Shown here: one piece after another, positions 62,006 to 63,405 of the stretch | Numbering within the stretch: the stretch's first letter is position 1 | Layout of the letters: each line of letters begins with the position of its first letter | From: Candidatus Poribacteria bacterium | GTDB taxonomy: Bacteria > Poribacteria > WGA-4E > PCPOR2b | DNA length: 64,000 nucleotides | Reading direction: 5' to 3' | NCBI GenBank assembly: GCA_965215015.1 | Contig: OZ244042.1 | Span: forward strand, 1,024,001 to 1,088,000 | Program-made: the position numbers and the translations under genes | The notes under the pieces: generated by a model | Database searches by the model: none | What the model was told of the DNA's origin: nothing | The model's input: only the letters and a program-made list of their open reading frames with translations

Positions 62006-62871
62006 GTAAATCATTGGAATCCACCCTACATAACTTGGTAAGACGAGACCTGGACGCTTCGGACCTCAGTTATTGTGGGATAACTAAAAAACGAGGTTGG
62101 CGCATAGCTTCCCTCCCGATGGAAACTACTTTTTTGATACGGAAATACCAGAGAGCAGATATATCTGGCGGTGGGTATCCTACCAAGCCCCTGATTTAGT
62201 GTACGTCCGCGCCGCAGTTGATAAAACGTATGGGGACGCCGCCTTTGAGCGAGATCTACCAATCACCAAGTATCTGCCAGAGGAAAAGGGCCAAGTCCTG
62301 TACCTCAAACATCTCAACTATAGCCAAGGGGGAGGATCGGAGCTTCCCCGGTCCATTCGAGGTTGATCTCGGGGCAATTCAGGTCGAAACCATCGAAAGC
62401 GGTGAGAATGCACGCCCGCATATTCCAACCTGTGGGTATCTAGTAACACACAAAGAGAAGAGTATCTCAGTCCTTCACACCGGGGACCTACATGCGCCGT
62501 ATTCTGCGTTAGAGAATATACAGGGACGAGTGGACTTTCTCATCCACATGAAGCTGGGATTGACAGAATGGGGTGGGAACCACACGCTAAACCTTGTAAA
62601 TCTTGTAGATTTGGTACAACCACGTTTTCTAATCCCGACACATTACAGAACCGATAGCGTCTCCGATCCGATTCCCCATGATACCTGGCCCCCCAACATT
62701 ACTGATGTCTTGGGTTTCATCGAGTGGATCCGTGAAACCGTAGGTAACAGAACCAAGCTGCTGCCCTTTATTGCTGGCATTGAGTACGAATTGGAAATGC
62801 CGGCAAAGAAAGTGCTGTGGAAATGGAATTGGTTCAATACATGGACGATACTACCCTGGCGCGAAGGGTAG
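62002..62871 (+). pseudogene. Fragmented/chimeric relic ending in a metallo-beta-lactamase-fold C-terminus
   Basis: Three successive frames; the last has GYLVTH..VLHTGDLH...LIPTHY but no HxHxDH N-terminal half. Confidence 0.6.
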
Positions 62872-62922
62872 CGATAAGCCAACGATTAAAACCGATTCGC
62901 AACTAAGGAGATAAACCAACCG

Positions 62923-63405
62923 ATGCAACAATTGAACAAAGCCATTGCTTGGGCTATTGTGTTGTTCCTTCACTCGCAATTACTCGTTCAGGTATTTGCC
63001 GCTGAACCGGAACGAATTGCCTTGGTAGAGCTCAAGCACCTATTAGATGCCAAAGAGAATGTAATTCTAGTTGATGTGCGCGCCCCGATTCATTATAACT
63101 TCGGGCATATCCCCGGTGCTATCTCAATGCCATTTTCGGAGGGGATTGAAGCGAGACACCAAACACTTCCTCCCGATGGGCTAATTGTTTTATACTGAAG
63201 CTGACGGGCGGAAGCAACAAGTGCCCGTGCGGCACAAATGTTAATAGAGGAGTTTGGTTTTCCCCCGGAACGGGTAAGAGTGCTTCAAGGGGGTCTTCCC
63301 GCATGGCGGGAGGCTGGCTATCCAGTTGAAATTACAGCGGCAGTCCAACCGAAAGGAAAACGCTTCGGTCTGTGGGGCCGGATTAAATCGATAGGTCGAA
63401 GGTAG
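62923..63405 (+). CDS. Secreted rhodanese-domain protein, putative double selenoprotein (U-S-U)
   Basis: AAGGAG RBS, signal peptide, LVDVR, GHIPGA, IVLY-TGA-S-TGA-RAEATSARAA...LQGGLPAWREAGYPV, C-terminal WGRIK, TAG at 63403. Confidence 0.8.

Follow-up and report, generated by a model that had tools for sequence, protein, structure and literature searches.

This locus raises the question of whether two in-frame UGA codons, separated by a single codon in the active-site loop of a rhodanese-like gene, are decoded as selenocysteine (Sec), and which RNA element would direct that decoding. The gene occupies positions 62923–63405 of a 64,000-nt stretch of DNA from a Candidatus Poribacteria bacterium (contig OZ244042.1, positions 1,024,001 to 1,088,000), and this whole stretch is referred to below as the window. 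Comparison with its relatives indicates that the gene is very probably a genuine double selenoprotein gene served by one small hairpin, 63221–63235, which would act as its selenocysteine insertion sequence (SECIS). The gene is unannotated and represents a tailed new branch of a known rhodanese selenoprotein family. The enzymatic role of the product is much less certain than the status of the gene.

Under translation table 11, the open reading frame that starts with the ATG at 62923 ends at 63198, at the first TGA (63196–63198). The plus strand reads TTA TAC TGA AGC TGA CGG at 63190–63207, the portion TAC TGA AGC TGA CGG corresponding to 63193–63207. Reading through both TGAs yields a protein of 160 residues, MQQLNK...LIVLY-U-S-U-RAEATSARAAQ...GGLPAWREAGYPVE...KRFGLWGRIKSIGRR, with the active-site segment L-Y-U-S-U-R-A-E-A-T-S and the C-terminus WGRIKSIGRR, after which TAG stands at 63403–63405. 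The Pfam rhodanese model PF00581 covers residues 36–130 with 61.3 bits (cut-off 22.2) and spans the TGAs. A first-pass annotation, made from the letters of the window, had described a frame that runs past 63198 into the C-terminal half of a rhodanese, a WGRIK tail and TAG, and both the translation and the Pfam match on either side of the TGAs bear this description out. A scan for promoters and terminators around the gene gave no signal above that of shuffled sequences.

A six-frame search of 176 species genomes of the phylum (E ≤ 1e-20) located the gene at 48 places in 47 genomes, with two in-frame TGAs at 39 places and one at the other nine, one of which also has a TAA, its true stop. Within the window's genus 18 of the 19 other genomes carry the gene, as do 11 of 11 genomes of family f3, and at the same threshold it is absent from all 112 genomes of family f2. 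SelB was found in 107 of these 112 genomes, which implies that the gene was lost or never gained there despite Sec decoding. Protein identity among orthologues amounts to 72–86% across the genus and 41–67% in other families of the phylum, and the double TGA is kept from 99% down to 48% identity. In the same alignment columns the motif is Y-U-S-U in 39 orthologues and Y-C-[S/G/T]-U in nine, codon 92 being TGT or TGC in L048–L050, L054, L056, L057, L059, L062 and L063; relatives of family f4 read C-S-U. The sole all-Cys example found in database searches is the homologue P0084 (Y-C-A-C-H-A-E-A-T-S). Since 39 of the 48 orthologous places share both TGAs and the other nine share one, the pair is not a matter of chance, as had been argued from the improbability of two nonsense mutations striking exactly these codons.

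Selection on the protein persists beyond the recoded codons. In four groups of sequences the ratio of nonsynonymous to synonymous substitution rates (dN/dS, Nei–Gojobori) is 0.31, 0.24, 0.13 and 0.16 on the 3' side of the TGAs, and 0.18, 0.11, 0.19 and 0.17 on the 5' side; dS itself is lower downstream than upstream in the two largest groups. The downstream values imply purifying selection on the C-terminal half, and the relaxed selection past the UGAs that had been named as a sign of a wrong reading was not seen. Near relatives of the gene are publicly labelled Candidatus Poribacteria bacterium. Contigs of an RNA library (X18; record 2, 3563 nt, 70 differences) span the gene of a relative, and as contigs are no proof of transcription, no claim of expression is drawn from them; a contig of sequencing run X3 contains the stretch without differences and, as it may derive from the same source DNA, does not count as independent support.

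The host genome, in which the window sits in a single 5.94-Mb contig, also possesses the required machinery, with all of selA, selB, selC and selD, the four genes proposed earlier for checking, being present. selA is found at 529 bits, and the SelB-specific wing domain (70 bits) lies in a 645-codon frame directly downstream of it. A tRNA-SeC(tca) follows directly after selB, at 4766553–4766646. selD (369 bits, NCBIfam) has its own single in-frame TGA and is hence Sec-containing. SelB occurs in 166 of the phylum's 176 genomes. Of the 47 gene carriers, 46 have it, and the exception, G040, is 80% complete. A third TGA closes the frame in 29 of 43 orthologues, where the window has TAG, and recoding would therefore be position-specific.

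Within the coding sequence, downstream of the two UGAs, the RNA can form the hairpin GUGCC-CGUGC-GGCAC. Its loop, with 63226 as the first base, lies 27 nt past the end of UGA1 (63198) and 21 nt past the end of UGA2 (63204). In an alignment of 48 sequences (39 distinct), all 195 of 195 cells pair, two of the five pairs have changed on both sides, and none of 500 shuffles matches the observed pairing or covariation score; when the pairing partner is slid by 1–3 columns, pairing drops to 20–66%. One of the double changes combines the synonymous replacements AGT to AGC and GCA to GCG (L062, L064), and the other leads from C-G through U-G to U-A (L054, L057). Between codon 100 and the first base of codon 105, synonymous positions do not vary in 43 sequences, AGT, GCG, the third base C of G[CT]C and the third base A of [GA]CA being fixed in 43 of 43; these bases make up the consensus GUG[C/U]C-N5-G[G/A]CAC. 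Among 138 distinct 40-mers collected by two DNA pattern scans, pair 2 is C-G in 94, U-A in 32, U-G in 12 and C-A in none, and the patterns allowed Y and R at these positions, so C-A could have matched. The loop itself is C-G-U-G-C in the window and NG[U/G]NC among the sequences observed, its second base (column 32 of alignment A2) being G in 48 of 48.

These features can be set against the bacterial SECIS model given in the Fig. 2 legend of a 2026 review (PMC13188914), in which an apical loop of 3–9 nt closes an upper stem of 4–16 bp, a G, mostly as G[G/U], occupies the first two loop positions, the spacing is 16–37 nt and the minimum free energy is −7.5 kcal/mol or lower. In stem length, loop length, loop base and distance to either UGA the hairpin falls within this model. 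Its energy in the context of the window is −7.9 kcal/mol, and bare variant 15-mers range from −3.7 to −8.3 kcal/mol, so that not every variant reaches the energy limit. Sec machinery, Cys/Sec exchange, purifying selection and a covarying hairpin thus all agree with two Sec residues one codon apart in a rhodanese, as first proposed for this locus.

How one element could serve two codons is suggested by relatives with the motif C-x-U. Such relatives from other phyla and groups, including Acidobacteriota, Chloroflexota, Desulfobacteraceae and Nitrospirota, carry this hairpin too, equally far from the one UGA that they have. The first pattern scan matched at least 120 stretches, and among the 80 loci examined C-x-U was found in 75 and U-x-U in five, four of the latter being labelled Poribacteria and one Chloroflexia (L147). 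The earlier statement that this subgroup carries Y-C-x-C is to be corrected accordingly, C-x-U being the usual form. In a quick tree, built without L060–L064, eight of the 80 rows that were too short and six duplicate rows, the clade of the window (support 95) is nested in C-x-U sequences, and 2–3 changes of label are needed. Because the hairpin is common to C-x-U relatives and U-x-U is nested among them, the first UGA appears to be a derived, later Cys-to-Sec change, with the existing SECIS reused at a distance greater by 6 nt. SelA, SelB, tRNA-Sec and SelD of the host would then recode both UGAs under the direction of the single hairpin that lies within the gene itself. This comparison of sequences lends good support to the view that one SECIS serves both UGAs, and SelB, as we infer, would be reloaded within two codons.

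The spacing can be compared with that of other genes of the host. In eight further single-Sec candidates, the hairpins picked by a simple rule have their loop 16–25 nt past the UGA, and the 21 nt of UGA2 fall within this range. In Escherichia coli the fdhF SECIS, which works with SelB, lies immediately 3' of the UGA and carries G-U in the apical loop of its hairpin, and work on E. coli is reported to have found a strict spacing of 11 nt for the minimal hairpin. The FdhA candidate of the host shows this geometry (stem 11 nt past the UGA, loop GGUCU), whereas in the window a single 5-bp stem begins 16 nt past UGA2 and 22 nt past UGA1.

The predicted protein has three parts: a leader, a rhodanese-like domain and a C-terminal tail. 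AlphaFold, run with an alignment of 17 sequences, returns a confident rhodanese fold with a mean pLDDT of 85.5, in which strand 87–91, coil 92–97 and helix 98–110 follow one another, and the best Foldseek matches are rhodanese domains (3tp9, 3nhv, 3gk5 and 1yt8; probability 1.00, rmsd 1.8–2.0 over about 110 columns). The leader, modelled as helix 2–24 with pLDDT 68–74 and followed by the conserved P29 and R31, shows the same pattern in all 43 orthologues examined, at least one K or R and then at least 14 uncharged residues; on account of this basic-then-hydrophobic leader the protein is likely exported from the cytoplasm. Two relatives have lipoprotein-like Cys sites, as judged by the lipobox motif. 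All 43 of the 43 orthologues examined share the tail motif, which has W151 and K155 invariant in alignment A1 and was met in none of 75 C-x-U loci of other phyla and in one of 80 U-x-U metagenome loci (L212), so the basic Trp-containing tail is, as judged from these loci, clade-specific. It is modelled as helix 147–158 at pLDDT of about 51–56, and its hydrophobic moment ranges from 0.03 to 0.67.

As to the chemistry, Sec94 is our tentative choice of nucleophile, made for its invariance and for the length match to the following helix. Sec94 would carry selenium or sulfane sulfur, the Sec or Cys at position 92 would be the resolving partner, and a Se–Se or S–Se bond could form across one residue. 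The protein may accordingly be pictured as an extracytoplasmic sulfur-transfer or redox enzyme, acting for example on polysulfide or thiosulfate. A joint reading of RNA and protein can be put forward with moderate confidence. One 5-bp SECIS would serve UGAs 6 nt apart, with SelB acting at two spacings and being reloaded in the course of two elongation steps. Translation would yield an exported rhodanese whose strained diselenide spans one residue, a redox-active carrier of sulfur or selenium held at the envelope by its basic tail. The first-position Cys-to-Sec change would have arisen more than once, with no change of the RNA element.

Several observations weigh against these interpretations. 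On the RNA side, the hairpin is small, and for some orthologues the bare 15-mer attains no more than −3.7 to −4.3 kcal/mol; the 65-nt region folds like shuffled sequence (z −1.56, with 16 of 200 shuffles as good), and the minimum-energy fold in the host is another, unconserved structure. The 27 nt of UGA1 exceed the 16–25 nt of the other candidates of the host. On the protein side, the canonical Cys falls on residue 94 in the profile alignment with 1yt8 but on residue 92 in those with 3nhv and 3tp9, and the relative P0165 has C-S-R, with neither Cys nor Sec at position 94. Glu97, invariant in the loop and encoded by GAA in 48 of 48 sequences, is odd for an anion-binding rhodanese. Finally, none of the genes next to it in 30 loci is kept outside the genus, which leaves the genomic context without a pathway to suggest.

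Glu97 leads to the alternative that fares best, namely that the two-Sec protein, rather than carrying sulfur, binds metals or metalloids or works as a thiol–selenol oxidoreductase, with U-x-U and Glu97 forming a soft-metal or selenium site. Such a residue is unusual for a thiosulfate-binding loop, and there are weak family matches to TsoB and to ExtH, a rhodanese of selenite/tellurite operons. The host encodes a Sec-containing protein with a heavy-metal-associated domain (G-L-T-U-G-G-C), and many newer bacterial selenoproteins are described as implicated in metal or metalloid resistance in the review cited above (PMC13188914). Nevertheless, metal-resistance genes are not conserved next to the gene, and sulfurtransferase-type rhodaneses are what its fold and its closest solved structures point to. 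The fusions of U-x-U rhodaneses with multihaem cytochromes described below point to sulfur redox, as in the periplasmic polysulfide reductase MccSep (PMC13510729). This alternative is unlikely, though arguable, and sulfur transfer or sulfur redox chemistry is preferred.

It is more doubtful still that two SECIS elements are present, the small hairpin serving UGA2 and an overlapping long structure of its own (63200–63210 paired with 63222–63233, including ACGGGC..GCCCGT) serving UGA1. Folding at minimum energy does give the long structure, both for the window and for many relatives of the genus (−17.5 to −18.6 kcal/mol), and one of its pairs has undergone a G-C/C-G swap between the window and the relatives (CG 7, GC 1, UA 1). 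Yet in the alignment 80.7% of its 429 cells pair, 441 of 500 shuffles are equal or better, and pair 11–31 is unpaired in 30 of 39 sequences. Its loop would begin 12 nt past UGA1, below the published minimum of 16 nt in the model quoted above (PMC13188914), and C-x-U and U-x-U relatives are alike in this stretch. The first-pass annotation had offered two hairpins, 63204–63227 and 63221–63235, and one or two overlapping SECIS. Both hairpins can indeed be drawn in the sequence, and 63221–63235 is conserved; 63204–63227, extended here to 63200–63233, does no better than shuffles and was rejected. The comparison thus speaks for one conserved SECIS element, not two.

It is scarcely credible that TGA here encodes Trp or another residue through an alternative code or general read-through, or that the gene is a decaying pseudogene: some public calls of relatives do show W (P0065, LYWSWPAEATS; P0141, FYWGWRGEHTS), but TGA is an ordinary stop in the host, closing 867 of 2620 open frames of at least 300 codons, the sole tca anticodon among 49 tRNAs belongs to tRNA-Sec, codon 92 alternates between TGA and Cys rather than Trp, and the conservation of both TGAs, the low downstream dN/dS and the covarying hairpin 3' of the TGAs are at odds with decay.

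A double-Sec rhodanese of this kind has precedents. A second Sec giving a UxU motif in a rhodanese-related sulfurtransferase was noted in the Olavius algarvensis symbiont metagenome by Zhang and Gladyshev 2007 (PMC1976440); the likeness to the present protein lies in the rhodanese relationship and the U-x-U motif, not in a sequence comparison, and the organisms named there are deltaproteobacterial symbionts, unlike that of the window. The 2026 review distinguishes five rhodanese selenoprotein forms, form 3 being NF041203, with CxU and one Sec (PMC13188914). This NCBIfam equivalog model, rhodanese_LYCAU, is the best match for 17 of 17 clade members tested, all of which lie far below its cut-off of 115 bits (best E 3e-23; window protein 71.9 bits). 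The layout Y-[C/U]-x-U-P-x-E-x-[ST]-S-A and the distance of the hairpin are shared. U-S-U of the window has the same place and spacing as in L-Y-C-A-U, a motif known here from the family name only. The window protein differs in having Sec for Cys and a 24-residue basic tail outside the 126-position model.

TsoB (NF045694) is described in the same source as a rhodanese/DsbD fusion-like selenoprotein with the motif UxxxxU and two Sec (PMC13188914). It resembles the window protein in its rhodanese fold and two close Sec, with a weak match of 29.6 bits, and differs in being a fusion of 572 positions, with a cut-off of 805 bits, and in having its Sec residues 5 rather than 2 residues apart.

Beyond the phylum, a pattern joining UxU to the hairpin retrieved 110 metagenome stretches. 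Among 80 of these loci, residue x of Y-U-x-U is T in 46, A in 13, S in 11, G in 4, Q in 3, E in 2 and N in 1, and the C-terminal half of a rhodanese is present in 73; two U-x-U metagenome sequences pass the NF041203 cut-off (L202, 160.4 bits; L213, 133.3 bits). The arrangement, which the first-pass annotation had called very unusual, is thus real and interesting, and neither new nor rare. P0141 and the metagenome locus L212 represent a U-G-U variant with the tail, from a lineage whose species genomes have C-S-U. At ten loci (L216, L224, L234, L235, L237, L258, L260, L262, L263 and L279) a U-A-U rhodanese runs in frame into repeated C-x-x-C-H haem motifs, and these loci, read from their translations, are rhodanese–multihaem cytochrome fusions. 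In L208, L247, L271 and L275 the rhodanese continues into another part, which in L275 shows a DsbA-like F-Q-C-P-Y-C. A profile search of 1.84 billion representatives was dominated at its top by multi-domain rhodanese repeats, and 8 of the 150 matches listed were examined. A literature search covering text outside supplements and figures found no paper on selenoproteins of the Poribacteria clade and, on the UxU motif, PMC1976440 as the sole relevant one.

The coordinates of the gene, of its parts and of the other selenoprotein candidates of the host are collected in the table.

Table. Features of the rhodanese locus (window coordinates) and selenoprotein candidates elsewhere in the host genome (G000:C1 coordinates)
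Feature	Position	Strand	Remarks
Whole coding sequence, probable double selenoprotein	62923..63405	+	160 codons and TAG; translated with TGA as U
Shine–Dalgarno-like AAGGAG	62905..62910	+	12 nt 5' of the ATG; read off the sequence
UGA1, codon 92	63196..63198	+	predicted Sec in the window; Cys in 9/48 orthologues
UGA2, codon 94	63202..63204	+	TGA in 48/48 orthologues (columns 7–9 of alignment A2 invariant)
N-terminal leader, residues 1–27, signal-peptide-like or membrane anchor	62923..63003	+	K6, 21 uncharged residues, V-F-A-A
Rhodanese-like domain, residues 36–130	63028..63312	+	Pfam PF00581, 1.3e-16
C-terminal extension, residues 137–160, with K-G-K-R-x-x-L-W-G-[RQ]-I-K tail	63331..63402	+	motif conserved
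Putative SECIS core hairpin GUGCC-CGUGC-GGCAC	63221..63235	+	5-bp stem, 5-nt loop; from UGA to stem 22 nt (UGA1) and 16 nt (UGA2)
Formate dehydrogenase alpha (FdhA) candidate	G000:C1 5235416	-	Pfam domain spans TGA
MoeB/ThiF-rhodanese candidate	G000:C1 495928	-	Pfam domain spans TGA
Heavy-metal-associated (HMA) domain protein candidate, G-L-T-U-G-G-C	G000:C1 3349591	+	Pfam domain spans TGA
Two AhpC/TSA-like candidates	G000:C1 4567640, 5639723	+, +	Pfam domain spans TGA
GrdB-like candidate, U-P-L-C	G000:C1 4932507	+	
SnoaL protein candidate, C-terminal U-P-K-C	G000:C1 4900185	-	
selD	G000:C1 3518806	+	NCBIfam match

The other candidates of the host stem from a de novo scan that returned 239, of which the best 45 were listed, 12 retrieved and 10 searched against Pfam. 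Seven of the eight host candidates were among those scanned, and in five of them a Pfam domain extends across the TGA; L072 and L074 matched no Pfam family in the scan of ten candidates, which L070 and L081 fell outside. An enolase-superfamily gene (MR_MLE_C, residues 165–391) at G000:C1:2153716-2154933 on the minus strand has an in-frame TGA at codon 177 (2154405), followed by a hairpin with a GGUGC loop, as in rhodanese relatives; this TGA could be a chance occurrence, mark a pseudogene or be a Sec site not described before.

The neighbourhood varies among the 30 loci compared. In 11 of them (L019, L021–L027 and L029–L031) a pyridine nucleotide-disulfide oxidoreductase dependent on flavin adenine dinucleotide, with the motif G-G-D-C-L-W-T-G-C-V-P-S-K, starts a few bases past the TGA stop of the rhodanese gene; it is absent from that downstream place in the window. 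In nine of the 30 a gene of the metallo-beta-lactamase (MBL) fold stands upstream, which in L014 and L017 encodes a protein of about 327 residues with S-H-E-H-F-D-H. The window has a gene remnant at 62097–62871 on the plus strand, directly upstream of the rhodanese gene, which keeps only the C-terminal two thirds of the MBL-fold protein, spread over two frames, and whose start is joined to a fragment (…NYFFDTEIPESRYIWRWVSYQAPDLV) resembling the beginning of another gene, one that lies upstream in other relatives.

The finding does not establish a new principle, the UxU motif having first been reported in 2007 in the text cited above (PMC1976440). Its meaning lies first in what public protein sets lack. 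Of the 78 best database relatives (P0002–P0079), 77 are gene calls covering at most 57% of the protein, mostly as a stub of 91 residues, and the sole full-length call reads TGA as Trp; as a consequence of such truncation these sets lack a selenoprotein that is conserved in a whole candidate phylum, and it also falls under the cut-off of the only curated model, NF041203. The occurrence of C-x-U and U-x-U forms with one hairpin at one position provides a natural test of how much SECIS–UGA distance is tolerated and of the rapid double use of a single element. At the protein level, two selenols with a single residue between them would give a predicted extracytoplasmic rhodanese an unexplored active site, and the related multihaem cytochrome fusions hint at a role of this family in sulfur redox cycling.

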